NCBI GenBank assembly: GCA_973895155.1
Contig: OZ316894.1
Location: 3,248,944-3,312,943, forward strand
DNA from: Marsupella aquatica
Taxonomy: Eukaryota; Plantae; Marchantiophyta
Length of the DNA stretch: 64,000 nt
Direction of reading: 5' to 3'
The translations under genes were made by a program, and so were the position numbers. Shown in pieces: positions 3,613 to 61,742 of this stretch. The notes below the pieces were generated by a model. It was not told where the DNA came from. It made no database searches and saw only the letters and a list, made by a program, of their open reading frames with translations. Positions within the stretch are counted from its first letter, which is position 1, and each line of letters begins with the position of its first letter.

Positions 3613-5072
3613 GTCTGGAGACTAACGGAAAATGAAAAATGAATTTAATTTTTTTACATTATTCTGTGAAAAAGTTAAGACCATTTGCTTGTGGCAAAAA
3701 GCACTCATGTTCAACTTTTGAAGCTTTGAGATACCTTGTTCTATAGCCATCATCTCCAGCTTTGAGACGTTGAGACACCCTGTTGTATAGCCATCATCCC
3801 CAACTTTGACGCCCTAGTTTTAAACATTTTTTTTCCTTTTTTAGTCATTGTGGCAAATGTCCTCTCTGAGGAAGAAGATGCTTCCAATAATACTCCTTAT
3901 GTGTATTTCCTGACCATTAGATCTCCTTAGATTTAAGGTAGACAGTCAGATTCTGTCAAATGGGGTCTATGCTTCATAAGTGGGAAACTGGCTAATGTGA
4001 TAAAACAATCTAGGTAATTTTGGCCAAAAGTGTCCCAAAAAATGGAGGGAGGTGGAATCTGGCAAAATTTTGCATGTATAGAAATAATACTCTCGCCTCC
4101 AACCCAACCTAGGTCCCGCTGTTGACCTTTGTCTCCTAGTAGCTTGTGTCATCCTTTGAGTTACACACCCACTAATTCTTTGCAATCATGTGTCTATCTT
4201 AAGTTATGGCTCCTTGCCGGTGATAGCATCAATGGCACCATTGTCAAGCCATGCAAATGGCACAACCAACCCTGGGTGCACCTCAAGTTGGAACTGAGCC
4301 AACGAGTCTCCCCTATGTTTCCCTTATATAATGCATCAGCATTCTTGTGTCACTTTTCTTCAATTGGCATAGAGCAAGTATTAGGTAGTAATGAATCTCA
4401 TTATTGATCACAATTGATTCATGGTTTGTGAGGTTCTTAGAAGAAATAATAGTTTCATATATGTTTTATGGGGACCAGTCACCCACAGGCCCGGTTTGGT
4501 CCCCCTTTACAGTCCATAACACTACACATTGCATGATGATCAAGATCTTCTACTTTGTAATGATGTGCAAGTTTGTGTATATCTCTGTACTTTGATGTCT
4601 CATGGTCAAATGTACTGTAATGCTGGCAGCACTGACAGTGCAATGCAGTGTAAGTGAATGCTGATTTGTAAGCATGAACACAATATATTATGTGTAAAGT
4701 TTTGAAGTCCATTGTAAATTGATGCATTGTGGCGAGTTAGTAGGCTTCTTGTTCAACACCCTCACACCATTTGAATGAGTGAAAGGACAGAAAAATCAGC
4801 AAATAGTACGCAAAAGGTATATATGTGGTCTCCAAACGGGTCCAAAAATTAATGGCCACCACCAAACAAACTACAACTGCACGTTGATAAGCAGTTTATT
4901 TTATGGCTTTGGAAAAAAGGGAGGGAAACCCCACACAGAAAATTGGCTGGGAAACCAGCAGGAGGGCAAGGCAAACCCCTAAACTTTTTTCCAAGAACTT
5001 GCCATGGATCACACTATCTAAGTGTCCTGCTAAGCATCAACTCACGCTTGAGAGAACAGAATCCGATAACTG

Positions 5073-5406
5073 TGTTAAGGATTGCTCTTAGTCTTGTGAC
5101 TCAAAGGTTACGGCACTTAGGCTAACCACAGTTAGGGTCTTAGCTGAGGTTAGGTTAGTTGTGTGTGACCTTGTATATACCAGGGCTAGTGTAAGCCGTT
5201 GGTGTGTGGTGTGCTTACTCATTGTAATGGAGCAGCTTGAGGAAGAGGGAGAGCATGTGTGTTCGTCTACTCTTGAAGTAAAGCTTGAGTGTTCGTGTGG
5301 ACGTAGCCTTGGAGAAAAGGTGAACCACGTAGAGATTGTGTCGACTACGTGTGCATGGAATGAATCATGGTTGTATGGTCGTTGCGAATGATGTCTTAGT
5401 TCAACA
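5073..5406 (+). repeat. 5' LTR of copia element
   Basis: TGTTAAGG...TTCAACA; matches 11949-12282 with 8 substitutions by manual comparison. Confidence 0.97.
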
Positions 5407-5408
5407 AT

Positions 5409-5420
5409 TGGTATCAGAGC
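5409..5420 (+). promoter_or_regulatory. Primer-binding site complementary to the 3' end of initiator tRNA-Met
   Basis: TGGTATCAGAGC, 2 nt after the 5' LTR. Confidence 0.96.
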
Positions 5421-5741
5421 AAGCCTGGGAGGTGACGTTGAGGTGATCAAAATTTTTGTGACGTGTTGGCACCTGACGGTTTTTTCCAGCGATTAGAGTC
5501 GGTGGATTTCACGGAGTTCCGTCGCATGGAACTTGGAGGTGTTGGGCTCACGGATAGATCGGGGCAAGGGCTATCTAACGGTGTAAAGAAATCTTTGAAT
5601 GGAGTTTGTGGTGCGGAGGAATTCATGTTTCCATCGTTCTGGATTTTTTGTGATTCGTGTTCGACGGTTTTCTTCGACGGTTCTTTCGGGGGAGGACCTG
5701 AGATCGTTTACTCAACGGTGTGAGATTTGTGGTGGACGAGG

Positions 5742-5890
5742 TGACGCATACTATAGCTATGATATAGACCTTGTAGATCGGGCATATATATATATGATAT
5801 ATGATAAAATGACGCATACTATAGATATATATGCTATATGATAAAATGACGCATACTATAGATATATATGCATAAAATGATACTATAGTC
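5742..5890. repeat. Short AT-rich minisatellite in the copia leader
   Basis: About 3 degenerate copies of (atgataaaat)gacgcatactatagatatat. Confidence 0.75.
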
Positions 5891-7257
5891 ATATAGTCTG
5901 CTATCGAAGGTGTAGCGAGTGCGACGTTTCGAGCAAAAGAGCCGTTCTGAGTTTCTGACCGGCTATGAAGTCTTCTTTTGACTGAAGCGGGGTTTCTTGT
6001 CGTTACGTCCGACTCGGAGGAAGATTCGTGAAGTGCTACGGCTTAAAGGAGAGATCGCGGTGAGGCGGTCATTTTGAGTCCGGGATTGGCACTTAACACG
6101 AAGTGAAGGCGACGTGATGAAAGGTTTTTTCTCTACTGTGCCTGCAAATAGTGCCGGTGAATACGAAATTTTTTTCCCGTCATCGATCTTCATTTTCTCG
6201 AGCAAAACGGAAGGTGCATTTTTTCTTTTGAAACAACATTTGTTTGTTTGGGGCAAAGCTTTGGTTTTAAAGGGGTTTTTCCACCCCTTATGTGTGTATA
6301 CACACACAGGGTCGACCCCATCGCGCGCCCCATCCCCCTCCCTCATACAAGCCCTTCGCCATTTTTTGGTTGTAGCCGCGACCGCCGTGGACCCTATCGC
6401 GCCGACCGGCACCCTTCGCCCTGCCCACGCCTTGCCAGGCCTTGCCACCCCACCTCCGGTTGCTCCTTACCCCGTCGCACCCCGTTTCCCCCTCCTGCCG
6501 CCGTTTTTCCTCGGTCGCTGCTTCGCGGCGTATGTTTTGTGTTTTCGGTCAGCTGCCCTTGTAACCCCGCCTCAATGCCCTGTATTTTTGCCTGGCCCGA
6601 CATGCATCGCCTATACGCGTGTGCGCCTTTTGGGGCCGTATTTTAGTAAAGGGGCTTAACACCCCCTTTAGGCCCTTATTTTTATTTTTCCCACTCCTCA
6701 TTGGTTATGCCGCTTCTCGGGACCTGTCGCCCTCCGAATTAATCGCTACGACAAGGGGAACGGCCCCCTGTGAGACCTGCTGCACAGTCCGGGGAATATT
6801 CTGAAAAAACAAAGAGTTGTTTTTTGGCCTTTAGTCAAAGATTCCAAGGTCCGAATGATAACTTTTTTTGGATCTTTTTTGGCGAGGACGTAGCCACTGA
6901 AGCTAGCAACGCGGTGCACCACTTGATTTGCATTTTCGACGATGGGTGGTACTTTGAATTTTTCTTATTCCCCGAGGTGGTCAACACGGGGGAGAATTTT
7001 TGAGTTTTATCCACCTTGACCGAAACATGAAAAAGTTTTTCGTCGGATCTCAATTTTGATTACAGATTTGAGCGTTGGCTTGCTAGGCTAGTGGGCTACG
7101 TGGTGGTGACAAGTTTCAAGTTTTTTGGAAAGTTGCAGAAAACAACATTTTTTCGTGACTTGGATTTGAGTCAACAAGAAGGAAGGAAGGAAAAAGCAAC
7201 AAAAGCATATAGGGAGCAACACAACAATAGCACGTGGAGAACGTTGGGAGGGCAACG

Positions 7258-10200
7258 ATGGCATCCAAGTTTGGAGGTGTCAAGTTTGAGGTGGAAAAGT
7301 ATGATGGGCGCACAGATTATTTGCTATGGGAGAAGCAGGTTAAGGGAATTCTTCGTGCTATGGGCCTAGATCATCTGCTATCGACTCGGGAGGAGTCTAG
7401 GAGTGAGGAGGAGATCCCGTTGAGGAAATGGAGGCAGGAGCAAGTGATCGCTGTGAATGCGGTTATGCTGTATCTAAAGCCGCATATCATTAAGAAGCTG
7501 GACGACTACGAGGATTGCGTATCCTTATTCAAGGCCCTGAGAGAGAAGTACTACCGCGAGGATGCCTCAGATCGGTTGTACAAGAAATCTCTCTTAATGA
7601 GCTTGAGGCTAAAAGGAGGTGTTTACAAAAGACAGTAAACAGGAAACAAGATTTAATAACAGAAACCGGTAACAGGAAAAAAAATGGTAACAGGAAAATG
7701 GGTGAAAAAAAATTTTGAAATTTTTATTTTGAGAAAAAAAAAGTTTTTTTTTCCGGTTGATCAGTTTTTTTTGCTAGCGCCCGGCGCTGCTAATAGTAGC
7801 GCCCAAAGCTAGCCAAAAATGTTGCATTATTAATTTTTTTGGGAAATAACATGTTTTAGGAGACATTTTTAAATTATCATTTTTCCTGGTAACAGTGATT
7901 TTTTCCTAGTAACAGCATTTTAAAAACAGGAAAAAAAAATCTTGTTTACCTGTTTCCTGTCTCCGTCGCTATACCCGCTAAAAGAAGGAGGCAAGCTTCG
8001 AGATCACTTGGATGAATTCGATAGCCTAGCTGTAGATTTGTCAAATCTTGGCAAGGGAGTGGAAGATGAAGATAAGGCATTGCTTCTTCTTAGCTCCTTA
8101 CCCCCATCGTATCAAGGTTTGAAATAGGTTCTCTTGTATAGAGACCTCAAAACCATTTCATATGATGAGGTGGTAAGCTCTTTGCTGTCAGATGATGCAC
8201 AGAAGAAACTGGGTCATACCCAAACACCATCTTCATCTGGCAGTGTGTTAAATATGAACCGTGGGAGGACTCAACAACGGATGACTAGTGAAAACAGGTC
8301 TTTTTCACAATCATACCCCTCACAGAATAGAGGCAAGGAGAAGGCTCGGTCTAAGTCTAGATCTAGCTCTAGAGAGAAATCTCTAGAAAGGAAACCAATT
8401 ATATGCTGGAAATGTAACAAGCCCGGCCACATGAAAAGAGATTGTCGAGTCAAGCAGACTCATCAACCATCAGCGAACGCAGCCACTGATGTTGATATGA
8501 TTGACTTGCTTGATGATGAAATCTTGTGAAGTCAAGATGTTGCCCTTTGCATTTCATCCAGTAACAACGGTGATGAATGGATTTTAGATTGTGCTTGTAC
8601 CTATCATATTTGTTGTATGAAAGATTTTTTTTAGTTCTTACTCAATATCAATCGGTTCCGTGTTGATGGGGAATGATCATCCTTGTCAAATTGTTGGAAT
8701 TGGATCCGTGAAAATTTGGATGTTTGATGGAGTTGTGCGAACAATGAGTAATGTCAGACACATACCTGACATGAAAAAGAACTTGATTTCTCTTAATTGG
8801 AATGCTGGAAGCAAATGGATGTCGGTGGAGTTCTGCTGATGGTATTCTTCAAGTGTCAATTGGAGGCAAGGTTGTCATGAAGGGTAAGCGGCACAGGAAT
8901 CTATACTTGTTGGAGGGCAACGTGATTTGTGAAGAAGCCAATGTAACTAGATCTCAAGGCGAGATGACTCAGTTGTGGCACTACAGATTGGGACACATGC
9001 GTGAAAAAGGTTTGGCGGTACTTCGCAGGAAAGGACTTCTTTTTAATTTGGAATCTACTAAGATAAATTTTTGTGAACATTGTGTACTTGGGAAGCAGCA
9101 CAGGAGAACATTTGGTGTTGGAACTCACAATACCAAAGCTATACTTGAGTATGTACATAGTGATGTGTGGGGTCCAGCCCCAACTCCCTCACTTTCTGGA
9201 AAATTGTACTATGTCACGTTCATTGATGATTACTCCCGGTATGTGTGGATCACATTTATACACGCCAAGTCTGAAGTTTTTGGCACTTTTAAGAAGTGGA
9301 AAGCCCAAATTGAGAATCAGATTGGATCCAAAGTGAGATATCTACGATCAGATAACGGCGGGGAGTACAGTTCAAGTGAATTTGAACTGTACTGTGCAGA
9401 GCAAGGAATTACTCGCCATCTCATGACAATTTATACTCCTCAATAGAATGGTGTTTGTGAGCGGCTGAACCGAACACTATTGGAGTGATAGAGGAGTATG
9501 TTGAGCCAATCAGGGTTACCGCATGAATTTTGGGCTGAAGCTGTAAATACGGCAACTGATTTGATAAATCTTTATCCTTCAAGTGAAATCAATTTCAAGA
9601 CGCCGTTTGAAATGAGGTATGGACGGCACGCAGACTATTAGGTTTTGAGAGTCTTTGGAAGTGATGCATATGCTCTCACACCTAAGTAGAATCGATCTAA
9701 ACTAGATTCTACTTCCAAGAAGTGTCTTTTTCTTGGTTATCAACCAGGTGTGAAAGGTTATAGGCTATGGGATCCAGAAGCTTGTACGTTGCTTGTCAGT
9801 AGAGATGTATCCTTTAATGAATCCAGATCATCAAAGGAGGGGGAGAATATTTAGACTTCCCGTACTGACAAAGGTAAATCTCCTATCCTGGACCATATTG
9901 AGGGAGAGATTGGTCATGAGGGTTTTTATGACATAGTTGAAGGATGTGCTCCAATAATGGAGCTGGTTCCGATGATAGAACAAGAAGAGCAGGTTGTTGT
10001 TGGAATACCTCAAAATCAACCAACGGAGCAAGATCAGCCAGAATCATCAGCTAGAAAATCAAGGCGAACTACTCAAGCTCCTACAAGGTATGGACAATGG
10101 ACAGATTCATCAAGGTTAGATAATGTTGACATTGCACCTAATGATGATGATAGAGCACTGATCTTGGAAGAAGGAGAACCGTCTTCATATCATGAGGCAA

Positions 10201-11744
10201 GCATTTCAGACGAGAAAGATTAATGGAATGCAACAATGCAGAGGGAGTTGCAATCTTTAAGTGACAACAAAACATGGGAGCTGGTGCAGTTGCCAAGTGA
10301 TCAACAAGTGGTGGATAGCAAGTGGATTTACAAGCTGAAGGACAACTCTTGAGATGGAGGAGACAAGATATACAAGGCAAGGCTTGTTGCCAAGGGATTC
10401 ACTCAGGAGAAGGGAGTGGATTACAATGAGGTCTTCTCTCCAGTTGCCAAGTATTCCACGATACTAATTTTGTGTCAACTTGTTGTGTTTTTTGATCTGG
10501 TGTTAGATCAAATGGATGTTGTTACTGCTTTTCTCTATGGCACTTTGGAGGAACAAATTTTCATGAGGCAACCACTGGGCTTTGTGAAGAAGGGTCAAGA
10601 AAGTTTAGTTTGCAGGTTGCTTAATCCCTGTATGGATTGAAGTAAGCTCCTCGACAGTGGAACAAGCGGTTTGATGATTTCATGCTTACACAAGGATTCA
10701 CTAGAATGGTATATGACCCTTGTGTGTATACAAAATCAGTCAAGAATGGTGTGTTTGGTTTACTCATTCTGGTGCTCTACGTGGATGACATATTGATTGC
10801 GGCTAAGGATCAAACTGAGGTTGACAAACTCAAAGCAAAATTGAGTTCTGAATGAAGGATCTTGGAAAAGCCAAAAGGATCTTAGGTATGGAGATTACGA
10901 GGAACTTTGAAACTGGACAGTTGTGGCTGAATCAAGGCAAGTATGCTGAAAAGGTACTTGCAAGATTCAACATGGAAAATTGTAAGCCAGTAAGTATTCC
11001 TTTGGCTCCACATTTCAAGTTATCATCGGCTTTCTGCCCCACAAATCCAGTGGAGAGAGGCTTGATGACTAAGGTTCCTTATGAGAAGGCAGTGGGCAGT
11101 CTAATGTATTTGATGACATGTACCAGACCTGATCTAGCCCTAGCAATGGGCAAAGTTAGTAGATTCATGGGAAGGTACACTAGGAGGCTGTGAAATGGAT
11201 TCTCAGGTATCTTAAGGGCACAATAGACTATGGTCTATTGTTTGAAAGTAGATCAAACAAAACCAAATCTTTGGTTGGCTATGTAGATTCTGACTACGAA
11301 GGTTGTCTGGAAACAAGAAGGTCAACGACTGGGTATGTGTTTACTCTTGGAGAAGGATGCATAAGTTGGAGATCTACCTTGCAGAAGTGTGTATCTCAGT
11401 CTATTACAGAAGCAGAATATGTTGCAGCAGCAGAAGCAACAAAGAAAGCAATTTGGTTGGATAAGCTGGTCACTGAGATGGGATTGGAGCATGGAAAAAT
11501 GGCTCTTCATTGTGACAGCCAGAGTGCGCTTCACCTAGCTATTAACCAGGTTATGGATAGCAGGGTGAAACACGTTGACATCAGGTACCATTTTATTAGG
11601 CAAGCAGTGTCTGATAAAATGTTTGAGCTAGTCAAGATTGATGGAAAACTCAGCCCGGCTGATGCTTTTACCAAAGTGATTCCTTTGGAGAGTTACTCAA
11701 GACACCGTGCTACTTTGCAGGTTTTACATTTGCAACACAAGTAG
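7258..11744 (+). pseudogene. Copia gag-pol polyprotein, disrupted by stops, frameshifts and a MITE
   Basis: Gag start MASKFGGVKFEVEKYDG..W; Zn knuckle CWKCNKPGHMKRDC; protease WILDCACTYHIC; pre-integrase LWHYRLGHM and CEHC; integrase HSDVWGP, FIDDYSR, LRSDNGGEY; RT YKARLVAKG and LYVDD; RNase [29 protein letters not shown]. Confidence 0.96.
7616..7976. mobile_element. 361-bp MITE inserted in copia gag (8-bp TSD; hAT- or Mutator-type)
   Basis: TSD GCTAAAAG at 7608-7615 and 7977-7984; inverted ends gacagtaaacaggaaacaagattt / aaatcttgtttacctgtttcctgtc; removal restores gag MSLRLKEGGKLRDHLDEF. Confidence 0.93.
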
Positions 11745-11937
11745 AGTAACTTAACAAGATGTGATTTATGCATATGAGTTACTCAATCCTGTTATGGCTA
11801 CGGCTTAATTCTAGTTAACTCTTAGTTAACCTTAAATGGTTTTTAGGGGGACACCTATGGTTTTAGGTGATTGTCTAGAATTTCCCACTGAGTATCTCAT
11901 ATGGATAGCAGAAATTGCAGTCCCCAAGACTAGAGTC

Positions 11938-11946
11938 AAGGGGGAG
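11938..11946 (+). promoter_or_regulatory. Polypurine tract of copia element
   Basis: AAGGGGGAG just upstream of the 3' LTR. Confidence 0.85.
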
Positions 11947-11948
11947 TT

Positions 11949-12282
11949 TGTTAAGGATTGCTCTTAGTCTTGTGACTCAAAGGTTACGGTACTTAGGCTA
12001 ATCACAGTTAGGGTCTTAGCTGAGGTTAGGTTAGTTGTGTGTGACCTTGTATATACTAGGGCTAGTGTAAGCCGTTGGTGTGTGGTGTGCTTACTCATTG
12101 TAACGGAGCAACTTGAGGAAGAGTGAGAGCATGTGTGTTCGTCTACTCTTGAAGTAAAGCTTGAGTGTTCGTGTGGACGTAGCCTTGGAGAAAAGGTGAA
12201 CCACGTAGAGATTGTGTCGACTACATGTGCATGGAATGAATCATGGTTGTATGGTCGTTGCGAATGACGTCTTAGTTCAACA
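11949..12282 (+). repeat. 3' LTR of copia element
   Basis: TG...CA; near-identical to the 5' LTR; followed by TSD AACTG. Confidence 0.97.
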
Positions 12283-12689
12283 AACTGCTGCATGCACGCC
12301 CCATCACCTGAAGTTTTGTTTTGTTGTTCTCAAAGGTTGGGACTGCAAGAGCCAGAGTGTTCCCTGCCTTTGCCCTTGGATCTCCCATTATAAGTGCCAT
12401 CAGGCCTTCCTCAAGAGGGGGTTGAGGGATGACATCCTCAGTAACTCATACGATGCAATCCCTTAAGTATAGCAATGTAAGAGAAAGGACTGCCTAATGC
12501 AAGACAGCCCTAAGATCAAGCAAAACACATCATGGAGACTTGGTGGTCACATCTAAAATAACTAGATACACTAAAATAGAGCTACACCCTCACTTGACAA
12601 ACAACTCCTCTTAGACCCTGCATCTGGGTGGACTTGCTTGTTCCCCCAGCATTTCATGACATTTGACACTAGTACATTTTTGCTCATTT

Positions 12690-13170
12690 TCCGATGCTCC
12701 CGCTGAAACATGAAACAGGCGTCCGATAGCCAGAGTTACGCAAACTTTCGTTAACAAAAGTATCGGAACTTGCGATCCCCACAGCTTCGGGAACCCAGTA
12801 TCCAATTTCCAAAACATCGGACATAATTTGCGATACGCTTAATATTGGAACATATCCGATGTCTTGACTATCGGACCCCTCTTCTAAAAATTGTTACTAA
12901 ATTTCCGATCCCTGAAGTATCGTATTTGATGTCCGATTGAGTAAATTACGGAAATATTGCGATCAAAAATGTATCACTTAGTGCTTCCGATAGGTTGGGT
13001 ATCGGAAATTGTTTCCAAAGTAGTGTGTATCACAAATAAGTCCGATGCGACAAGAATCGGAAATGGAGTCCGAAAGGGTTTATATCGGATATATGTGGTT
13101 CGAGGTCAAGATTTGAACAAGGAGGTGTTTCGATGGGCTTCCGTTGTTTTAAGCATGGGAAATGGTATCG
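12690..13170. repeat. Left subterminal repeats of CACTA (TCCGAT/ATCGGA motif)
   Basis: Dense direct and inverted copies of (T)CCGAT / ATCGG(A). Confidence 0.85.
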
Positions 13171-13362
13171 GGAATAAATGGACGTGACTCAAATGCATAT
13201 ATTACTTAGGGATTGCAATTTGGATTGTGTCAAGGGACTATATACAGTTGTATCCAAAATTATATCCAACCAATGAATCTTTGGGCATGTGTGAAATGAC
13301 ATGACAAAATGTATATGATATCCATGAAGATAAAACATATAGGGGTTTTACCTAGGTCGCAT

Positions 13363-16300
13363 CTATTGTAATGAGGGGTCCAAATCCTCTACTACAACTA
13401 CACTTGGCTTGTCTTGAACAATGGATCGTGAGCGAGGGATGTAAGGCATAACAATGGACCACTCTGGGTCATTCGGATAAGGAAGATAGAAAGATTGCTC
13501 CAAATGATGGGGAAATGCAAATGGATCTGAGGTCCTCCAATTGGAACTAATGACACTAGTTGCACTGGTCTTCAATCGTGTGAACCCACATGCATCTTCT
13601 TCACAGGTCCGATTATGGCCAACAAGATTCATCCGAAACCATTTGCACTTGAACACCACCTCCTCCAAGGTTGTATGGGCATGATAATTTACGATAAGAA
13701 TCTCCTCTATCTTCCCATAGTGGGCCACAGTTGAACGTATTGGATTCCGGTCAGAAGTGTTACTTTGTGACTCTTGGGTGAACCACCCCATCACCCCACA
13801 ATCTTGTGTTGCTGCTCTCTTCATATCAAGATGTTGGATTCGAAAATGCCTTCCCTTTGACCACATGGCTGTTCGAGTCGTGACCATGAGTAATGGACCA
13901 TGAACAAGGGTGCGAATGTCATTGGTGACCTTTGGAAAGTGCAAAACACTCTCACCCTGACCCAACAAGGCATCAATCTCTGTCAACTTCTCCTTCATAT
14001 ATGGGAGAAACTTGGGGAAGAGGCGTGGCCGACGACTATTACTCTTCTCCTCCTCATAAAATGCAGTCCACTCCCCTGCAATCTCTGGTGAGTTATACAA
14101 CATGAATGTGGTGAGTTGTAGACGTTCAGCAGAGCCTAGTAGTCGTTCTCCCTTTGCTCCAGTGAGTCTATCCTCTTCATAATCTGCCTCTCGTGCTGAC
14201 TCATCTATCCAACCCCTTGGAGCATTTGGATCAAGTGTAGCCACAATGTTCGTACAATAGAACATACTCTCTGCTCCAAGGTGACGTTCGGCAATGCTAC
14301 CTTCCACCCTAGCACGGTTTGATACATATGACTTCATGACTCCCATGAATCGCTCTACCCAATACATCCAACGACAATGTACTGGGCCTGCAATGGCTAC
14401 TTCACGCACTAGATGTACAAGAAAATGAACTTGACCATCAAAGAAGGAAGGAGGGAGTGCTCGCTCCAACTTGCACACAACCTCCACTCCAAATACCTCC
14501 ATGGCAGCAATCTCTCCCTCGTTGACCTCCTTTTGACAAACCCATCTCAACAATCTACCCAATGACCAAAGTGCATCCCGAAGATCCTCGCTGCCCAATC
14601 CAATAATAGCAACTGGAATAACGTGCTGCAATAGACGATGATAATCATGGGTCTTCAAGAAAGCTGGCCATTTTGGAGAGTCATCTCCACCAAATGCCTT
14701 GTGAAGATTGGCACCATACCCTGTAGGAAACTGCATTGACCCTATCCGCTTGCGAAACTCTATTCGCTCACTCCTTGTGAAAACCCATGGGGGATGGATA
14801 GTAAGGGGAGGGTCAGGGTCCATAGATGGCCAAAAACCATGAAGGCCATGCATCCCCATCTCCTCACAACTCTCCCTCCAATTGTTGTTTTTCTCTCCAT
14901 ATAGATGGCGGATCAATGACCTCCCAACATTCCCCTCAATATGCATAGGGTCCAATAGATGATTTATCGACATGTGTTCCCAATATGGAAGTTGTGCCAA
15001 TGCAGACAAACGGGTCATGCCACATCTAGCCAAGGGTAATGGGTCATCTGGATCAGTCACCCTCTCCCATACCTCCTTCCAATATATTGGGTCCTTTGGT
15101 AAAGGCTGAGGTCTTGTGTCTGGCTGGCCCTCATCCGTGTCATACAAAAATGGATCATACCTCCAGTCATGCCCCTCAGGAAGATACTTTGTGTGACCAA
15201 TGTAAACTATCTTCCGCAGGGTGGTAGACTTTGGGCGCGCCACTCCCTCCAAGTCTGGTCCACAAGTTGGGCAAGCACGATATCCAGAAGTTTGCAAGCC
15301 AGAAATATATCCAAACCCTTCACAAACAATGGTCACAAATTAAAACCCATTAAGTTTTGAAACCAAACCAAAGGGAAAAAAATAAACAGAACGATATATA
15401 TATATGGGTAGCTGCACAAGCCATACTTAATTTATAAAGAGTTAGTCGGGTACCTGGAAGATCATGCATGGTCCACATAAGAATGGCTTTGAGCTGAAAC
15501 TCACGGGGTAAGCCCCCTGTATGCACTCGACCATCATAGCAATCCACTCCCCCCCAAAGTTTCTGTAGCTCCTCAATCAACGGTTGCAAGTATACATCAA
15601 TCTTCTTCACTTGCTTAGGGCCAGGAATAATCATAGATAGGAGCAAATGACCCTTCTTCATGGCCATCCATGGTGGGATGTTGTAGTTAGTGAGGACTAC
15701 TGGCCATACAGAGTATGGTTTGGCCTTGCCGGCCAGTGCAAATGGGCTAATGCCGTCTGATGCCAAACCAAGGCGAACATGACGAGGGTCAGTCTTGAAC
15801 TCACCCCAACGCTCTTCCACAAATCTGTTTGCAGGAGAGTCAACCATCATGCGCATGGTTGGATCCTGAGTAGTGTCTGAACGGTGTCGGGAATGCCATA
15901 CCATATACTTAGCCAACTCTACGCATCAAAACTGGTGACGCAAACGAGGAATAAGGGGAAAGTACCTCATAACCTTTTGAGGTACTCTTCCTGTCAACAT
16001 ATCCTCACGATATCTTGGCGCGTTGCACACAGGACATGTAAGAGCATTTGAGTGCTCCTTCCTGAACAAAACACAATCATTCACACAAGCATGTATGACC
16101 TCATACTTGAGGCCTATGGACTTCAACACTTTCTTCGCCTCTTTCCATGATGCTGGCAAGTTATTCCCCTTTGGTAACATACGATCATGCAATGTCCTGA
16201 AAATATCATCAAGAAGCAAGTTGCTTGCTCCATGTCTTTGTTGCAAGTTCAGTAATAACATGATTGCTGAAAGACGAGATAATCTAGACCCCTCAAAAAG

Positions 16301-18115
16301 ACGAGTCCGTGCATGCTCTTGAGCCTCCTCCCACTGGTGCAAGTGTGGATTCCGTGAAGGAGTATGCCTATGAGGAGGAGGTAAGTCAATGTCCTCCCAG
16401 TCACCTGGGTCATGATCACCCCGGGGATCACCCTCATCTGCATCCATGAATTGGTGCATCAACTCATCCATAGCCCGGTCCTCATCCACTCTTTCTTGGG
16501 TAGCATTAGGTAGTTCATGTGGAATGTCCATATCCTCAAAAGGTTGACCCCCTTGCCTACCATCCATGGCCTGAAGGAGATGTTGTCGCACAGCTCGTGA
16601 TAATACCTCAATATCTGGCTGAACAAATGCATTCTATCATACACAAAAGAAAACAATGAGAATGATATAAGTCCAGGTCTCTCAACCAACAATTGAGACA
16701 TCCATATATGAATGAGTCAAAAGACTCCATAGCTCTTGAAACCAATTAGAGAATGACTCAAGTAATATTTTTATAAAAGTGAACATATACACATGTTTGT
16801 ATGTGCTATGAAGGACGACACCGTATGGCCATCTTAGGCGCGTTCCAATCATAGTCACAAAAGAGTTCCTCACCAGCCCTAATAGTCCTAATGGCTACAG
16901 TCATAACATGGTCATCCATATGCTTCACATAGTAAGGTGGTGGCGGTGCCCCAAAAATCTGAACCCACTCTACATTTGGTTGAAGTCCTCGTCCTCTCCC
17001 TTTGGTACTATTGATATACCCAGCGATGTTATCACATCGCATAGGATCACCATCAATCATCCTACAATGCCAAGGCCTCTTGAGGACCTCATCCGGATCG
17101 GAATCCATTTGCAATGCATACACTCCCCATGATGGTTGTTGCCGTAAAATAATGTTCCAATTCTTGGCAGTGTATATAGGGCCAATATAAGGAAATAAGT
17201 GTTCCCCATCATAACCTCTTCGCCATGGCTTTGGATGGACCACAATGTCCTCCAAAGCAAATAACCCAAATCCTACATCAACACCAAGGGAAGATGACTG
17301 CACTATCCAATGACGGCCCCATATCTCTATAGGGGCATTAGTGGGTATGCCTTGAGGGATTTTGAATATCTCAGACGAGAAGTCCTTCACAAGAGGCAAC
17401 GCCTTTCCAGTGAGATATGACAATCCCAACCTACCCTCCACTACCACATAACCCTCACCTGGCTTCATCATAGGCGGACCTACCAAGTTTGGGTCTTGAG
17501 ACTCACGAGTGCCCAATGGTTCGTAATGTCTCCTATGCCTATGGGAGCGTGGGCCGGTGCGTAAAACCCTAGATGGAGGTACCTCCAGGTCACCTTGCTC
17601 AATGTCCTCCACCCTTGCTACAGGTACACTCCCGCCCTCACCATTGGGGCATGGGGCAGGAGGAGGGGGTGTAGATGTTGATGCAAGCATCCGTCTTGCA
17701 CTAGCCAAGAATGTGTCTAGCCATAGCTCTTTAGAGATCAATGGAGGAGGGGGCCTACGGGGCACCTATTCATTCAAAAAAAATCCAAAATTAATAAATA
17801 TATGATGATAGTGGCCATGATTGTAAGTGGAAAATTATGTTTCCTTCAAAATGTGTGGGATGAGAGTATGGGGTGCATACCTGGTGAGTTGAATGTCCTG
17901 GTAAATCAGGTTGGTGTTGCCCATAATTCTCAATATGCTCAATACACTCCCAAGCTTGACGAACCACCATTCCCTTACATCGCACACACCAACATGGAAT
18001 GGGGCCTAGAGGAGGAGGATGATGCAGCCTCGGAGGGGGGGGGGGGAGGAATGTCCCCCTCAGAAGATGACGAGTCCGAGTCAGAATCTGACTCGGAACT
18101 CCCAAAATTTGACAT
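13363..18115 (-). pseudogene. CACTA TnpD-type transposase; predicted exons 18115-17881, 16618-15454, 15317-13363 (about 1,117 codons); one in-frame TGA and one homopolymer frameshift
   Basis: Exon 1 PIPCWCVRC...CIEHIENYG resembles the transposase-associated domain. Core motifs: IHACVNDC..CPVC, RLGLASDG..YSVWPV..YNIPPW, HDLPG|FGYISG, ACPTC, DPMHIE, LPPSFFD..HFLVHL..GPVHCRWMYWVERFM, YGKIEEI..FKCKW. GT-AG junctions are in matching phase. TGA at 15926-15928; G12 run at 18035-18046. Confidence 0.92.
16806..17765 (-). CDS. SET-domain protein (putative lysine methyltransferase) exon inside the CACTA transposase intron; 319 open codons
   Basis: Four SET signature motifs in order: VGFGLFALEDI (GxG), PYIGPI (YxG), IDG..NIAGYINS..PNVEW, AIRTIRAGEELFCDY. 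Preceded by a T-rich tract and AG acceptor (17767-17766); TAG at 16806-16808. Confidence 0.88.
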   Translation of the reverse strand: MPRRPPPPLISKELWLDTFLASARRMLASTSTPPPPAPCPNGEGGSVPVARVEDIEQGDLEVPPSRVLRTGPRSHRHRRHYEPLGTRESQDPNLVGPPMMKPGEGYVVVEGRLGLSYLTGKALPLVKDFSSEIFKIPQGIPTNAPIEIWGRHWIVQSSSLGVDVGFGLFALEDIVVHPKPWRRGYDGEHLFPYIGPIYTAKNWNIILRQQPSWGVYALQMDSDPDEVLKRPWHCRMIDGDPMRCDNIAGYINSTKGRGRGLQPNVEWVQIFGAPPPPYYVKHMDDHVMTVAIRTIRAGEELFCDYDWNAPKMAIRCRPS

Positions 18116-19172
18116 CTGCCCATCAATGTGAAAATTAATCACATGTCAAAAATCTTTCCCACTCATATTAAGTACCCTAAATACAATATGTCAAGATTGG
18201 AACCTAGTTTACACTAAGCGAATAATTAAAAATAATGACTGTGCATCTTACCTAAATGATATCCGCACTGAACAATGCCTACTAGGATCTTGGCCTTAGA
18301 ATATATGCTAAGACAATATCCGAAATGTCTGCACAATTAAAGGAATACCATCAGAATTTATCTATACATATGTCCCCATAGAATCATATCCACTATATAT
18401 TGTGGCCATCAATGAAAAAAGTTTAGCCAAATATATACTTAAAGTGCTCACCTCCAAATGATAAAGGGAGTATATCATACCTTTCGGATGCACGGCCTAT
18501 CGCGATGCATAATGCATTGCAAAAATGGACCTACAAAAATACAAACAAAGAGAACGACCCAACCCTCCGCAAAAAAATACTGCACAATACACGCACATCA
18601 GGTTAACTTTGTTTGGCCCCCAAAATTAAATTCACATACAAGGTGGACAAATTTGTCAAAACTTTTAATGTGAGTGGGTCAATGATCATACCGTTCAACC
18701 CCAAAAGTATGTTGTCGTAAGGGGGACGTTACCGCACCTATAACCGGCTTTTATTCAAGAACCCCACCGCCCAAACAAAATCCGGCTACTCAACCAGGCC
18801 TACAATTACAATGCAAGTTTTCACATCAACTAAACTTACATTTCCTTACCACGTCCCCAGCACCCCCCCCCCCATTGACTAACTTATTATAAATCCATCC
18901 TTAAAGGCATAAAAAATAATGGACAAGCTAAGTCCGATCATATTGGAAGAGGAGTCCGATACTTTAAGCATCGCTATTTCCGATCCCATTTTCGATAGTT
19001 CAAGTATCGGATGTTCCGATTCTTAAAAAGTCGGATGGAGGGCACAATAGGGTTTGGTACTTTTCCCGACTAAAGTACGAATGTCTTTGTATCGGGCTTG
19101 GTTTTGGATGCAACTTGGGAGGAGCTGCCGAGTGAACACAAAGTGGAGGAGCATGCATTGGAGGTCGAGGCT

Positions 19173-21964
19173 ATGGAGGGGAATGGCACGGCTGGGGGGG
19201 AGGAGACGGAGCAGCCAGGGTGGGTGGAGATGGAGCAAGGCCGTCACAGCAGATCTCGGACATTATGGCAGAGATTTTCAAGAGGCAAGCAGGCCTGTCT
19301 GCTGAAGCTGCGGCCATAGCAGCTCAATTGACCCAGGGCCTGATTGACGAATCCAGGCAATCTGCCATAAGTGAAGCAGAGAAGGCTTTCATGGAGAGGC
19401 TAGAGAAAGGAAAGGAGAAAAAAAGAAAGAGGAAGGAGGAGAGGAAAGGCAGGCCAGTGGAGGCCCTCTCACCACAAGAAAGAGAGAAGAGGCTTAGAAA
19501 GGAGGCTCGAGCTGCAGAAAGGGCAAGGATTGAGGAAGAGAGGCTACGAGCAGAGGAAAGGGCCAAACGACCAAAATTGTTCATTAATAAGGGAGGAGCT
19601 CCGATGACAAAGAGCTACAATTTGTTCAGAAGTCAGCTAGGGCAGGTGTTGAGGGCAAATTTCAGCCCCTTAGACTACTGGGGGAAGAAGAAAGAAGAGG
19701 AGAAATTTCAAACAAGGGAGCAAGTGAAGGAGCGATTCTGTAATGGCTGCTTCCTGGATGATCGATGGCTGAATAAGAAGATCTCACGTTCACTTGCAGA
19801 TAGACGTAATAATGTGAGAGAAAAGATGAGGAAGTACCTGGCAGATTGTAAGGAGGAGGCAGAGGTGATCAGGCAGAGAGATCCCCCGGATGAGATACCA
19901 GCTGATGCCTGGTCTGCTTGGATTGATGCTGAGCTACAGGTTCGTGCTTGGCAAGCGAGACGTCACTGGCAGGCTGAGCTCGATGAGGCAGAGAAGAGGG
20001 TCCTTTCAGGACAGACTGTTGACATCCCCCTCCTACAGCAAAACTTAATGGAATGGGAGGCCAAATTAGCACTGCTTGGAGACCCTCCACTTTACATTCA
20101 AAATACAATTGAGAGGGTGGAGAAGAGACCTGCAGTTACTCACCGAATGGGGCAGGGTGGAGCGCATCGTCTCAAAGCAGAGTTTGTAAGTCCTCTGCTC
20201 CCCTCCTCCTTGCTCGCCTCCTTGCTGAATTTTCACCTTGAAATTGGGTCCTCCCTCTCCCTGATCACCTCAGGCACAACCTTGGCTATGCCTGCATAAG
20301 TCCTCCCAGACCTCCCCTCTTATCCCTGTGCGTTTGTTATCGAGCCTGTATCGCAAGTTTTGATGTGTCCTTATTTTTTTCTGTTTCCGATTCTATTCCG
20401 ATTGCTGAAGAGTCGGAAATGGAGTGGGACTCTCTCTTATGGGTTTTGGACGCAAGGCTTCCGATTATGGTCCGATTACCTGAGAATCGGACCCTGCATC
20501 GGACCTTAGGTTTCGGGGTTTAGGGTGGAGGGGTCCGATTAGGGAAGCATCGGAAAAATTCAAAATTTTGAATATTTGACTGTTTTAGGCCACGCCGGGG
20601 GGTTTTTTTTTTTAAGGAGTGTCGGGCTTAGGTTGTAGTTGCTTTTTGCGATAGTTAGGCCACAATAATAAGGGAGTATTTTATATAGGTAGAGTGGGTA
20701 GTGATACCCATGAGTTGAAAGGGATGTGGGGGTGTTAGGGAATTTTTCTATGTGTGGGGCTAGGTAGGGATTATTATTCATTAAGTAATGTGGGGGATTT
20801 GGTAGGGATTAACTTTTAAAATAATGTATTTCAAGTAATGGGGGGTTTCAATTTTATTCTCATTTGCCGGGGAGGGGGGTTAATTATTATCTTGAGTATG
20901 GTGCAGGAGCGAGAGCATGGACGCCCAATCTTGCCACCTGAGAGAGAGTTGGCTAAGAAATTTGGAACGCGGGCTCTGAAACTTCACATGCAGGACGAGT
21001 TGGGGTTGGTAAGTATATGCACAATTGAAAACCATATTTCTAACCTTTGAATGCAACATGGTTATAATCACTCCCTTGTAGGTCATTTGCAACACTAACA
21101 CTTGGGTTCATGGTTGCTTACATGTATGTAGGAGTCAAATGAGGAGTCGGAGGGTTTGGACTCAGACGAGGAGGGTTCGGGGGCCTCAGATTCAGAGTCT
21201 GAGGCTGAGGCTGAGGAGGGGAGTGTGGCACCCACCCCTGTTCGCTTGATTGGCGGCACATCCCGAGGGACTCGAGGTAGTCATTCCAGACGGAGGACTG
21301 ATGGTGATGTAGGTGGCCGTAGAGCAGCAGGAGGTAGTGGGGGTGCTACAGCTGCTGGAGGTGGTGTTGGGACAAGTGGTAGTGGGCGCCGGGGCGGTTT
21401 TCATCGATCTGCAGGTGCTGGTGGGCGGGGTAGTACTGGGGCCCATAGTGGTTCTCACAGGCCCGGGTCTGGTGGGGGGGGGTTGGTAGTGGGCCCCATG
21501 GTGGTTCTCGCCGCCATTCAGGGGTTGTTGGCGGGAATGGTTCTCGCCATTCAGGGGCTAGTGGTGGAGGGGCTAGTGGGGGTGGGAGCACTGCTCGTGG
21601 TCATTCAGGGGCCAACAGGGTGAGTGGGACTGCAGTTGGTGGCATTGGTGATGGGACTCCATCTCACCAGTCAGGGGCTAGTGGAGGTGCAAGGTCTCAC
21701 CACTCTGCAGCCCAAGGGGGTAGTGGAAGTGCATCATTTCATACTTGCTCCGATGCTGGGGGTGTTACAGTGCCTTCTCATGACTTAGAAGGTGATGTTG
21801 GTGACGTTGGTACCGCGATAGCTCCAAGCACCACAGCTGCAACTGCATCTCATGCTGTCATTGATAGGGTCCTAGGGTTAGTGCCAGATGCCACTACCCG
21901 ACCAGAGAGTTATCGCCCTCGTGCCAAGAAGAGGAAGGGACGACATGCACCAACATATGGATAG
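19173..21964 (+). CDS. TnpA-like (Ptta/En/Spm ORF2) protein with Gly/Ser/His-rich tail; predicted exons about 19173-20185, 20907-21008, 21132-21964; two G-run frameshifts as assembled
   Basis: Basic coiled region; TnpA-like block FRSQLGQVLR..W..K..VKERF..PPDEIPADAW; THRMGQGG..EF|EREHGRP formed across a GT-AG intron; phase-0 junctions; C-terminal RPRAKKRKGR (NLS-like); frame breaks at G7 19194-19200 and G9 21474-21482. Confidence 0.75.
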
Positions 21965-22223
21965 GCCAGGTAGCTTAGCATAGGACCATTTGTAGGTAGG
22001 CCGCGATACCATGCAGGTTGAGATGGATTATACACCTGTACATGTAAAGGTTGTACTTTCCATGTTAGAGGAGGCCATCCTCTTTTGTATATATAATGGC
22101 AGGGGTTTTCCCCCTTTTGAGTCTCACTACCATTCTTGCTACCCATGCTCACTTCCATGCATCCCAACATTGTAACCCCCACACCCCCAAAATTAATAAT
22201 CTGAAATTTTACCCCTTCAATTA

Positions 22224-22723
22224 TCCGATACTCCTCTGATCTTAAAAATATCGGAATGTCCGATTCTCCCAAACTCGGAATTTGCCATCCCTAGAGAATC
22301 GATCTTTCCGATACCCTCGGTTACGGTCTTTCCGATACTTCTAGTAACGGTATTTCCGATCTTTATAACGACGGTATGTTCGATACTTTTATTTACGGTC
22401 TTTGCGTAACCTTTTGATACGCAATATGCGATATTCAGAGTTACCCAAAGTCCGATTCTTTACGTATCGGAAGTGTATCGGAAGTGTATCGGAAGTGTAT
22501 CGGCTCCCCTCTTCCATTTCCGATTTGCAGAACATCGGACGGCTACTTTTCCGTTATTCTTGGGTACGCAAAGTGCGTTAAGTTTTGTATCGCAAAGTCC
22601 GATTATCTTCCGATTGTCGTTATCCGATGGGTTGAGAGTCGGAATTTGCGATACGTTTAGAGTCGGATGAGATGTTTTTCTTGGCAAAATTTTACAAAGG
22701 GATCCGAAGGTGTCCATATCGGA
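22224..22723. repeat. Right subterminal repeats of CACTA (TCCGAT/ATCGGA), including an 11-bp tandem (GTATCGGAAGT) x3.6 at 22464-22503
   Basis: Seen directly in the sequence. Confidence 0.88.
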
Positions 22724-23121
22724 AATTGACCTCATAATGTACTAGTGTGAATGGTTCTTCTTCATCAATCATCATTTTTCTGTTCCTTGCGTGTGTGGTT
22801 CCTCCATTCCCTTTTGAGTTTGAGATTTCACTAACATAACATCCCAGGAATGTTGTAAAAGATGAAGAAAATAAACACCTGAACTTTTTGCAGTGGTTTC
22901 CCAATGCTTGGGCCATCCAATTGGTTTGGGAAGAACAGAAACATCGAGTGCGAGCTACAAAACATTGAGACTGCACAATCTGACTTGCCTTGTAATTTAA
23001 AAAAATTTAAAAACCAAAAGTCACCATTCAAACTAACTCATTGTAATTGAGTTGCAAAGTACAAACTCAGTTCCTCATTCAGAGTAACTAACCAGTTTGT
23101 CAAATTGAAGAATTGTTAGGA

Positions 23122-36111: not shown

Positions 36112-37154
36112 TTCATGTATATGTTGCAGCCCAACAATAATGTAATGACTGAATATAAAACTTTTCAGTCATGCAAGAATGTAAGGGATATAACGGTGGA
36201 TATAATGCAAGGGGAGCACTGCTGTAGTTACGGACCCCCCTAGGGGTTGCTTGCAAATTCTTTGGCACGGGAGAGCACCACGTCAGAATGGACGTAAACA
36301 AACAAGACAAGACCAGTTTGCAACGAAAAAGAACCACCCTAGTCTTGTTTGTGTAACTTTTGGGTGGCCGAGCCATAATCCTTAGAGTAAAAATTAAAAA
36401 ATACAAAGGAGGGGATGATTTAAAAATAATAATAACCATTTTACTTACCATTTTAGTTTTGTGCAAATTGAGAATAATACACTTAAACAATATATTCACA
36501 TTAAATTTGGTTATAACCAGATGGATAAGTCAGCATTAAAGGGTAATTAAGTAACTACCCTTCATATGAGTAACCGCCTATTGACTCCTAGACCCTAGGA
36601 GACCGAATTGGCATTACCGCACTCATCCTCCTCGCTCCCGGCCATCTCTGTAGACTCCTCTTCAACAGCGGCAACCACTCTCTTTGAACTGTGTTTGTAT
36701 GATTTATTTCTTTGAAGCTTCCCTGATGTAAAGCGAGCTAAGAAGTAACAGATGAAGGGAGTCTCAACCTGTTCTCAGCTTTGTTGCGCTCTTGGCGATG
36801 CACATGGTGACCTGCAATGGAGGTGAATTCAGAGTAGCAGAATAGTAAGTTAATCGATTGGACTGGGAAGGAAATTTTGTGTTGAGGTTACAAGTGTGTA
36901 AGGACAATTGTGAAAGATCTGGTTTTCTGTTTGATGGAAATGTGCGCACTTTGCAGCTAGGATGCAAGAAATCTTACCCTGGCTTGAACTTTTGACCTTC
37001 CTGTCCTATTTAAGAAGCATGATATATAAGGTCATACTAGGGGGTTTTGTGCTTTGTCTTAAGAGCTTGCCTAGCAGCACTGTCAAATTGGTAGCAATTG
37101 CTGTCATTCTACTTTGCAAGTAATCAAAAAGCTGAATTCTGTACTTTGACACTT

Positions 37155-37345
37155 GGGGATTTCACTTTCACAAAAATGACATATCACGTGCGACGAAGGA
37201 TAAGATCATTTTATTGGTTCTAAGGGAAGACTTAAGAAGTTTTGTAGAGGAACAATAGGGTCTTTTAAATTCAATTTTGAGACTTATAAGAACAATAGGG
37301 TCTTTTTAATCCATTTTTAGAATATTCCAAGAATATTCCAACTTT
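37155..37345 (+). repeat. Dispersed repeat, probably a DNA-transposon terminus; inverted homolog at about 61553-61742
   Basis: ggggatttcactt..aaaaatgaca..ttttattggttc..aagggaagacttaagaa matches the reverse complement of 61650-61742. Confidence 0.65.
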
Positions 37346-40300
37346 ATAGGGGTTAAAAAATATATATTTTTTCGTACATTTTAGGGGGTCCGAGGCCTAA
37401 AAACGTCGCAGGTGATGGGGAGGTCCCTATTTAGTGAGACCCCCGAGCTTCAACAAAGCAATCACTTGATTGCAGAGGGACTTGATGGGAATTGAGTCGA
37501 CGAATCACTTAATGATGAAGACAAAATTGAGTCGATGAAGCACGGACAAATGAAGACAGAGAATTGAGTCGATGAAGAGAGCAGCTGGCAAAGATTTTAG
37601 GAGTCTCCATCTGTTCATACAAAATGCCTTAGGAGAATTGATATGAAATTTTATGTTGTCTGTCTGTGGAAAGCTAAATTGGGAAGAGACTTTGGAATTG
37701 AATGCTGGTTCTGCATAGAGCTCTGAATCGGGGAGAAACTAGGAAGTCAAATGTACTGTAAGGGATTCCTCCGATGCTATCAAAAACTCAAACTAAGCTC
37801 CTTAATTAAAACACCCTAACTATGCAAATAAACAAGTGGGTCCATGGATGAATTACTTCAAGTTAGAGTACAAATATTCAGAAGTGGAATCCCCCACAAT
37901 TAACAGGCAAGGTAAAAATCATGCCAAGGGTGGTGCTGTAGGATTGTGAAGGGGGTTCAAAGTTTGGCCTCTAGTGAACGTCCGCACAAATGTTTTGTAT
38001 GTTGATTGAAATTGTTCTGATAGAACTTCAATCGTTATGCGTTCAACATTTGCACAGTCAACTTACCCATTTGCATGCTTTTATTGTAGGTGACCTGTAA
38101 GTCAAGACTTACGCTTGTCTAAATTCCTTTTTTCTAGCTCAGCTTGTGCATCCAACTCTTCACACTACAAAGGGCATTCAAATTTGACTTAATTAGGTAT
38201 CAACAGGGGTCTAAACATGCCTTTACACTAGCTTACACTCCATCTTACAGGTCTGTAAAGTTGGGTTTCATGGTGTAACCCTTCCTTCCCCCCTATTATT
38301 TCAAACTTTACCCTCTCCACAAACTTACGCACTCTCGCGCGCATCAAGCTTTGTTAGCTATGGCTGCCCTTCAGAAATTATGGAGCTCTTCCACTGATTG
38401 GGTTCCTCTCGATTCAAATACTACTGATGGCCCGCTTGATAAAATGTATTAAGAACTCTACTAAAAAGTCTTTTGATTTGCATTGTTTGTTTCCTCCCTG
38501 TTGGCCTTCCTCATTTCTTGAACTTGAATGCCTCGCTAGTAGATTTGGGAGAGGTGTGACCAATGTCCACACACTTTGTTCTAATTACCAGCTGCGCTTT
38601 CGCTCTCTAATTCAATCTTCTAATAGACCCAAGCATGTTGCTTTGACTTGAACATGGATGCTGCCAAACAGTTCTTGCTAGAGGCTCAATCCTCGTCCAA
38701 TTCTTTCCACCTCCATGACTGAGTGCCCCAAAAGCTTTGCCTCCTGCCTTCACTCCGCTGCGCCCCAAGCTCAATGATATTGTAATCCCGATTGTAATGT
38801 GCCAAGGCTCGGCCTAAGTGATGACCAAATCGGCCAAAGCTCCTTTGATGTTGAAATGTGCAGGTGTGACTGAATTCTGTGATTCACATCGCTGGCCAAT
38901 GGAGTCCGCATTGTGCCCTTCCCAAGGTCTGTTTTTAACCTCTAGCTCGTGGAAGTAGCATTCTTTGAACTTGGAGGAAGGGACCTTCAATGTGTGTTGA
39001 AGACTGGAGATCGAAAGTGGAGACTGGAACATAGCTTGCTTGCTTTGATCGTTCTGAGGTGATCTGATAACATTAATGTGTTGAGCTCTGTGAGAAGTTG
39101 AAGACCTCAAAGTTGACGCCCCAGATTTTCCCAGTGTTCTTATTGTTTTGCAGTTTGAACGATTCCACGGGCAAATTTTGGGGAGATGATGAAAGAAATC
39201 TCTTTCAAGAAGCTTTTTAGTGCCGTTCTAGATATATTGTAGGATTTTGTCTAGCTTTGCGCTATGGAATATCCAGAATGATAGACGTGGTAGGTCCTGG
39301 TGTCAATTTTCAACATTAATTGCTTGAAATTGCCGTTCTAGAGTTTATATATCCTGGTTCAGTGAGGAATCTAGAGTCTCGTTGTTGATGTTAGACAACT
39401 TACACTGCCAATTTGCTCTTCTCCCTGGCGATTCCTACTTGTTTTTTGTAGGTGGCTTATGGTTTGATAAAACAAGATAGGTGCAACCCTATCTCCCTCC
39501 CTTTGATTACAATCTTTGGAAGCATCGATGTCATTGATGGCTTTGGGATCTTCCATTCTGAACCTGCTCAAAATTGTCTTACAAGTGTTGGTTATGGTGA
39601 GGTTATAGGAATCTTTGAAACTTTTTGTTGGCAGCTTTTTGTTGAGTAATTTTTGTTGGCACTTGTCTCAATGATGAGTTTTTCTTGAAACTGCTCACCG
39701 GTAACATCTCCAACAACAGTCTACTTCAGAATCAGATTTTTTTCTTATCCATGCACATTCTAACCCAAGCGGAGGTAAATAATGGATGCTCAGGATCTCC
39801 AAAGCATTCTAGGCTGCCGGTGCATCGAAGATAGAGAAAAGGGGAATGAAGGCTGGCAATGGGAGATATAGAGTGCAGCACAGGCCGTGGAATTGTTTTG
39901 CTGCCGAGTTTTGAGATCCGAACGAAAAGGAGAGGAAAGGGCTGCGGATGTTGCTTCAATTCATTACCAAAAAATCCTGCTTTGCCTTTGATTTGTCAAT
40001 GCATTTACCATGGTATGCAGTTCGGTACTTGCGCCATCTGCAGAATATTATAAAAAATGTGGAGACTCGTTCTTGATGGTATTTAGACCTGGAATGGCTT
40101 CTTTTATTTGGCAGAATGGTTGCCAGGCTGCTGCGACTACAATAGTAGTTGTGTGCAAGAAAAGAGGATGCATGAAAATACTTTCACATTGTAACTGGTC
40201 ACCCATGATTAATTTGAAGCTTTCAGTAGCTGGAAAAATGTATCAAAACTGCAAAGGCATCTAGGTTGGATGAAAATTTTTGTTTGGAAATATACTAATT

Positions 40301-61552: not shown

Positions 61553-61742
61553 CCCTTGTAAAGTTGGAATATTCTCAAATTTTGATTAAAAAGACCATAT
61601 TGTTCTTATAAGTCTCAAATTGGATTTAAAATACCTATATATTGTTTTTCTCAGAAATTTCTTAAGTCTTCCCTTGGAACCAATAAAATAACACTATCTT
61701 TTGTTGCATGCGATGTGTCATTTTTGTCGAAGTGAAATCCCC
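61553..61742 (-). repeat. Inverted copy of the 37155-37345 repeat
   Basis: ttcttaagtcttcccttggaaccaataaaa..tgtcatttttgtcgaagtgaaatcccc. Confidence 0.65.

Follow-up and report, generated by a model that had tools for sequence, protein, structure and literature searches.

The stretch analysed here, called the window throughout, comprises 64,000 nucleotides of the liverwort Marsupella aquatica (Marchantiophyta; GenBank assembly GCA_973895155.1, contig OZ316894.1, positions 3,248,944 to 3,312,943 of the forward strand), and its point of interest is a transposon whose transposase gene appears to share its first coding exon with a SET-domain exon. Enclosing this arrangement is a complete CACTA element, 10,081 bp long, that spans 12667 to 22747 (Table 1). 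Its terminal inverted repeats start with CACTA, a 3-bp target site is duplicated at its borders, and clusters of a repeated motif lie in subterminal position, as in CACTA/EnSpm elements generally; the element is a bryophyte member of the CACTA superfamily. The clustered motif, TCCGAT, occurs in 46 copies within the 10.1-kb element vs 18 in the remaining 54 kb of the window. Read along the minus strand, the parts follow one another as a Cys/His exon (exon 1), a 115-nt intron, a SET exon with a stop of its own, a 172-nt spacer and a two-exon transposase.

Table 1. Features of the CACTA element, in coordinates of the window (a slash in a splice site marks the exon border).
Feature	Coordinates	Strand	Remarks
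Left target-site duplication	12664..12666	.	TGA, identical to 22748-22750
Left terminal inverted repeat	12667..12678	+	12 bp, starts CACTA
Left subterminal TCCGAT cluster	12690..13089	.	13 copies, both orientations
Transposase exon B	13363..15317	-	end of Transposase_21, DUF4218, DUF4216; stop 13365-13363
Predicted intron within transposase	15318..15453	-	phase 1; restores a single frame; position and phase kept in related family
Transposase exon A	15454..16633	-	acceptor most likely 16633 (TAG/AAT), alternative 16618 (CAG/CCA), both phase 0
Premature TGA in transposase of this copy	15926..15928	-	codon 231 counted from 16618
Spacer after SET stop	16634..16805	-	172 nt, AT-rich; candidate poly(A) region, with TATAAA at 16775, and 3' portion of long intron
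SET exon	16806..17765	-	319 codons and stop; frame opens at acceptor; first ATG only at codon 26
Intron between exon 1 and SET	17766..17880	-	115 nt, phase 0; last 16 bases common to distant family
First coding exon (exon 1)	17881..18115	-	Ser/Asp-rich start, then CxCxxC-x14-H knuckle
Internal TCCGAT cluster	18933..19020	.	5 copies, between the two divergent genes
Divergent gene, main exon	19136..20185	+	first in-frame ATG 19262, donor after 20185
Internal TCCGAT cluster	20386..20554	.	8 copies, in intron of divergent gene
Divergent gene, probable second exon	20907..21008	+	predicted from AG before, GT after and open frame
Right subterminal TCCGAT cluster	22224..22723	.	16 copies
Right terminal inverted repeat	22736..22747	-	12 bp
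Right target-site duplication	22748..22750	.	TGA

Exon 1 ends at a phase-0 donor (CAG/GTATGC, after 17881), and the SET frame begins exactly at an acceptor, TAG/GTG at 17765, and closes with a stop that ends at 16806; both the GTG opening and the stop had been described by an earlier reading made from the sequence alone (the sequence-only reading), and both stand. Relatives for comparison come from a metagenome scan that returned 33 loci, namely 27 copies of one related CACTA family, a single locus of a third family (L020) and five ordinary bacterial SET genes (L029-L033), which are excluded from all splice counts; spurious anchor matches (L013, L014, L015, L017, L019 and L029) were removed from the count of SET acceptors. 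The related family keeps the same order of parts, with exon 1 upstream in 14, the transposase downstream in 12 and the divergent gene present in 8 of the 33 loci scanned, and one of its loci, L006, extends to a CACTA terminus. In this family the donor is GT wherever it was located (16/16 loci), AG stands at the SET acceptor in 20 of the 22 loci that cover it (the exceptions being one AA and one site replaced by other sequence), and the transposase acceptor is AG in 14/15. All of these sites are in phase 0, the SET and transposase frames both open at TAG/, and the conservation of the two acceptors among homologs, a check set beforehand, is confirmed. The intron between exon 1 and SET measures 116-118 nt in 15/16 related loci vs 115 here, the SET stop is kept, and the spacer that follows it is 172 nt in this copy vs 146 nt in L006. 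The intron inside the transposase, which serves as a positive control, is found at the same place and in the same phase. Judged by this comparison, the recurrence of three sites, their phases and an intron length in a distant family goes beyond chance.

When the SET exon of this copy is compared with that of L006, identity is 34% at third codon positions vs 52% at first and 61% at second positions, and fourfold-degenerate sites agree at 14 of 44; the last 16 bases of the preceding intron are identical with one gap. The SET acceptor appears to be under selection, because it matches while neutral sites are near saturation. Coding conservation extends upstream of the first ATG: codons 1-25 of the SET exon match the relatives P0001, P0002, P0007 and P0008, the last two of which have no Met at the position of that ATG, and in the transposase exon, too, the opening ~15 codons, which precede any ATG, show resemblance to L006 and to six proteins from gene models. 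With a frame that opens at a conserved phase-0 acceptor and with conserved coding sequence before any ATG, SET reads as an exon and not as a free-standing gene, as had been proposed.

Gene models, which are predictions and not transcripts, include instances of the same junction. Among named relatives, a gene model of Calypogeia fissa (61% identity) is nearest to the SET exon; in the C. fissa model CAM6082608.1 exon 1 runs into SET through the very same junction, and models of Riccia sorocarpa, together with one continuous Logan open reading frame (P0051), join Cys/His to SET. A quick tree was built from the 111 of 203 proteins that cover the SET core, and members that bear the knuckle or are linked to transposase occur dispersed within a single clade (76 rows, support 98). 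The link of knuckle and transposase to SET is, to judge from that tree, old, since linked members are scattered through the clade. Ginkgo biloba, Adiantum nelumboides and further Calypogeia models contain distant relatives of this SET (P0165, P0166, P0095 and P0104). The third family, at L020:112-1288, is likewise distant, with a SET stop, a 131-nt spacer and then a TAG/ from which an acidic frame runs, similar to the beginning of the transposase exon; no transposase core was found on the L020 contig.

By comparison, the architecture of the SET exon is well supported as real and conserved, and the present copy is a broken example of it. Its exon 1 is 235 nt long, not a multiple of three; read from ATG 18115 it meets a stop after 46 codons, the Cys/His motif is encoded in a different frame, and a run of 12 C (18046-18035) marks the place of the shift. 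An alternative ATG at 18123 shares the Cys/His frame and gives 81 codons up to the donor. The frameshift is, on the evidence of the related family, a lesion or read error in this copy, because that family has the Ser-rich start and the CxCxxC..H motif in a single frame. The motif and the phase-0 end ascribed to exon 1 in the sequence-only reading are therefore present, but the frame from 18115 is not intact. The transposase matches Pfam PF02992 (E 6e-41) and PF13960 (E 3e-29), and its translation contains LASDG, MHD, CPTC, HFLVH and VERF, in keeping with the DDE, C(2)C and H(3-4)H motifs of TnpD transposases, where we take the acidic (DDE) residues to be distributed among these motifs; in this copy a stop interrupts the frame (15928-15926), where 5/6 relative loci checked have Arg and 1/6 has the same stop. 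Given the frameshift in exon 1 and the TGA in the transposase, the possibility that this copy is intact was rejected. The transposase acceptor had been placed at 16618, and a phase-0 CAG/CCA does exist there, but it probably lies 15 nt too far downstream: site 16633 has the better T tract (13 T in 20 vs 8) and its TAG/AAT agrees with the TAG/AAT of the relatives, so that 16633 is the more likely acceptor and 16618 was rejected as the likelier one. The predicted products of 397 aa (78+319) and 1,117 aa (78+1,039) are right for an unbroken element, but in this copy they would require both lesions to be read through.

What exon 1 encodes is a knuckle of only ~30 residues. The motif of this copy has no Pfam match; matches to PF13963 in L007 (E 0.011) and P0080 (E 0.031) fall below the cut-off, and profile-profile comparison of exon 1 with PF13963 gives a probability of 84% over 31 columns, confined to the second, CxCxxC..H half. 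Kinship to this transposase-associated domain thus looks weak and partial; angiosperm CACTA transposases bear a related motif at their N-terminus. The proposal that the shared N-terminus directs the methyltransferase to DNA finds no support, because the DNA-binding domain of Spm elements is a tandem helix-turn-helix that lies in TnpA-like proteins (10.64898/2026.08.24.746577, section 6).

The SET exon matches Pfam SET PF00856 at 33.6 bits (cut-off 22.4). A structure predicted for the SET core alone from 93 sequences reaches a predicted local distance difference test (pLDDT) score of 91 and a predicted template-modelling (pTM) score of 0.87 (an input of 15 sequences gave pLDDT 42), and in comparison with known structures Set1, SET8, EZH2, SET7/9 and LegAS4 are tied at Z 10.9-11.9. 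In the SET alignment GxG is kept in 79/85 and 83/86 rows, the Asn of the NH motif in 80/90 and the terminal Tyr of ELxxxY in 71/75. From the predicted model we are confident that the product would have a SET fold with its catalytic Tyr. The best profile match is LegAS4/RomA (E 1e-7), which, like the present family, is without the His of the NH motif (it has Phe there) and is reported to methylate H3K14; activity of the SET product is plausible by that analogy, and the SET form is probably an active methyltransferase. A bacterial origin of SET, considered on account of the LegAS4 match, was rejected, as that match goes no further than E 1e-7 and the fold scores are tied with those of eukaryotic SET proteins. 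An NCBIfam search with SET gave no match, and scans of viral and prokaryote contigs gave 0 SET relatives among 49 and 106 pattern matches, respectively.

The element carries one further gene, divergent from the transposase on the plus strand, which is ~30% identical and in the same orientation in 8 related loci. It has no informative Pfam match; we take it to resemble TnpA, and it is probably a TnpA-like gene. Its region (19136-21960) includes later exons rich in Gly and Ser, and one more frameshift may be concealed by a run of G near 19193-19202. The two internal TCCGAT clusters, one in the divergent promoter region and the other in an intron of this plus-strand gene, are possible sites of self-regulation.

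In the reading that we favour, and hold to be moderately probable taken as a whole, the SET exon sits in the predicted first intron of the transposase gene, exon 1 is likely joined to SET in one transcript form and to the transposase in the other, and the protein made from SET likely acts as a methyltransferase on lysines of proteins, most probably those of histones at the element's own copies. A single transcript would begin upstream of exon 1. Use of the near acceptor would yield a knuckle-SET protein (~397 aa in an intact copy) from a transcript that ends in the 172-nt spacer or reads through it; with SET skipped, the far acceptor would yield a knuckle-transposase of ~1,122 aa. We think it likely that both splices occur. 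A regulated switch is possible but not required, and both forms may be made together. Targeting would go by way of a complex at the TCCGAT clusters, to which the divergent TnpA-like protein probably binds, and the knuckle would serve for docking or pairing; this is a guess, though a more likely one than DNA binding by the knuckle itself (clustered motifs determine the targets of the Spm DNA-binding domain according to section 4 of 10.64898/2026.08.24.746577). More doubtful is the further step, taken by analogy with the anti-silencing proteins TnpA and VANC, in which histones are the substrate and the mark favours expression of the element. The boldest version is unlikely to hold in full: an old and widespread bryophyte CACTA lineage would produce a histone methyltransferase of its own as an alternatively spliced form of the transposase, a zinc knuckle would bring either enzyme to the motif clusters, and the choice of acceptor would decide between rewriting chromatin (escape from silencing) and jumping.

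Several points weigh against the favoured reading. This copy cannot make a full transposase. The 27 related loci, ~40% identical in SET, are one family and amount to one independent comparison only, and the shuffle controls, in which the match of the last 16 intron bases was never reached (0/5,000, and 0/500 for the whole intron), ignore shared ancestry and T-rich composition. In the related family the SET exon has an ATG at codon 4 and the transposase exon has one at codon 8, so internal starts may be possible there. The His of the NH(S) motif is Ser in 86/90 rows, with Asn retained, and no single histone class is closest, the top Z scores of Set1, SET8, EZH2, SET7/9 and LegAS4 lying within 1 of each other. 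Weak searches turned up no gene model in which exon 1 is followed directly by the transposase: a search for longer proteins with exon 1 gave 0/101 candidates, and transposase exon A as query gave 7 matches, none with a bryophyte knuckle joined to transposase. Seven gene models (P0060, P0180, P0082, P0105 and P0121, all five of Riccia sorocarpa, and P0119 and P0173) do join SET pieces to the transposase exon, as would be expected if SET were a cassette spliced into the transposase to make a knuckle-SET-transposase fusion like SETMAR. Yet their joins fall at differing points and most lose the terminal Tyr. This copy and L006 have four phase-0 GT sites in common, which are weak (at most 4/9 consensus bases) and lie inside the core, there is no shared donor near the SET end, and the stop right after ELxxxY is kept in both families and in L020. 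A fusion is thus highly improbable, and the single SET-transposase frame of SETMAR type is absent, the SET stop being present in both families with no strong donor in common.

SET could also be a captured gene that has a promoter of its own, starts at an internal ATG and merely lies between exon 1 and the transposase. The ATG at codon 26 here and at codon 4 in the related family would allow this, and many database relatives start near the exon start, albeit as products of unspliced gene calling. Set against it are the 115-118 nt that are all that separates donor from SET frame in both families, the opening of that frame exactly at an AG in the donor's phase, and the conservation of residues before the first ATG but not of the ATG itself, which leave the captured gene with hardly any probability. 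Less remote, though still improbable, is a short form that acts mainly as a brake: the near acceptor would divert transcripts from the transposase, and the knuckle-SET protein, either a pseudo-enzyme or one with a non-histone substrate, would repress or modify the element's own proteins. The SET acceptor is indeed the first strong acceptor past the donor and is the best-kept non-coding stretch, the NH motif is altered, no close histone methyltransferase relative is known among the matches, and PMC4158355 cites cases of P and Ac/Ds elements being controlled through splicing (its passages covered here hold nothing on a first exon). But the S-adenosylmethionine site and catalytic positions are retained across a diverse clade, which a mere decoy exon would not need, and the altered NH motif is shared with LegAS4/RomA, an enzyme described as active on H3K14. 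A non-histone substrate nevertheless keeps some probability.

Elsewhere in the window, a retrotransposon with long terminal repeats that are 98% identical (~5070-12285, with integrase domains, probably Ty1/copia) ends ~380 bp left of the CACTA end. Tandem arrays with periods of 19 nt and 35 nt occupy 43670-44800. A long inverted repeat pair, 37152-37401 and 61505-61745, 24 kb apart and 81-88% complementary, possibly represents two copies of a small element, and an enoyl-CoA hydratase-like frame at 56518-57093 (+) is probably the exon of a host gene.

Plant transposons counter silencing through DNA-binding proteins, which remove DNA methylation or bring in enzymes of the host. If the favoured reading is true, a lysine methyltransferase that splicing connects to the first exon of a transposase would be a direct route by which a transposon writes chromatin marks, and in the boldest version the element would be the first plant transposon shown to have its own histone writer; the hypothesis can be tested in liverwort and moss laboratory models. 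There is also a warning for annotation, as many "SET domain genes" in the gene sets of Riccia and Calypogeia are transposon exons and would inflate counts of host SET families. A literature search gave no paper on SET in CACTA elements or bryophyte transposons. The word "methyltransferase" is absent from the main text of a survey of 962 Repbase Spm structures (10.64898/2026.08.24.746577), whose supplements, like Repbase itself, may hold such an annotation.

Among the closest known systems is En/Spm (maize Spm; Arabidopsis Spm3, AT2TE20205), with which the element shares CACTA ends, a 3-bp duplication, subterminal clusters, the same transposase domains and, here as a prediction, two products of one gene through splicing (as described for En/Spm in 10.64898/2026.08.24.746577). 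The analogy with TnpA/TnpD drawn in the sequence-only reading holds to the extent that one gene would give two products, but is otherwise loose: the second product here is a SET-fold protein and not TnpA, and both products would share a coding N-terminal knuckle. The sole candidate accessory gene, the probable TnpA-like one, is separate and divergent on the opposite strand, so that the maize-type organisation of TnpA and TnpD spliced from the same strand is not found; separate TnpA genes are also described among Spm elements (10.64898/2026.08.24.746577). LegAS4/RomA, SET8, Set1, EZH2 and SET7/9 have the SET fold in common with the exon product, at an identity of only 17-30% over the aligned part, a level that allows no call of orthology or substrate. 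SETMAR (Metnase) likewise combines SET and transposase in one transcription unit, but it is a domesticated host fusion, whereas here SET is part of a mobile element, ends at a stop of its own and, by prediction, is used in alternation with the transposase. DNA transposons with a SET methyltransferase gene are described in Phytophthora (HarbingerS and SET-carrying MuDR families; PMC12730594); those belong to other superfamilies and another kingdom, and the present case is a bryophyte CACTA element with SET as a predicted alternative last exon of the transposase gene. Finally, VANC of VANDAL/MuDR elements, TnpA and the fungal transposons that carry TET/JBP are examples of transposon-encoded proteins that act on the epigenetic state of their element (PMC12730594; 10.64898/2026.08.24.746577, section 4), and unlike these, which remove DNA methylation or recruit host demethylases, the SET product would itself write a lysine methyl mark.

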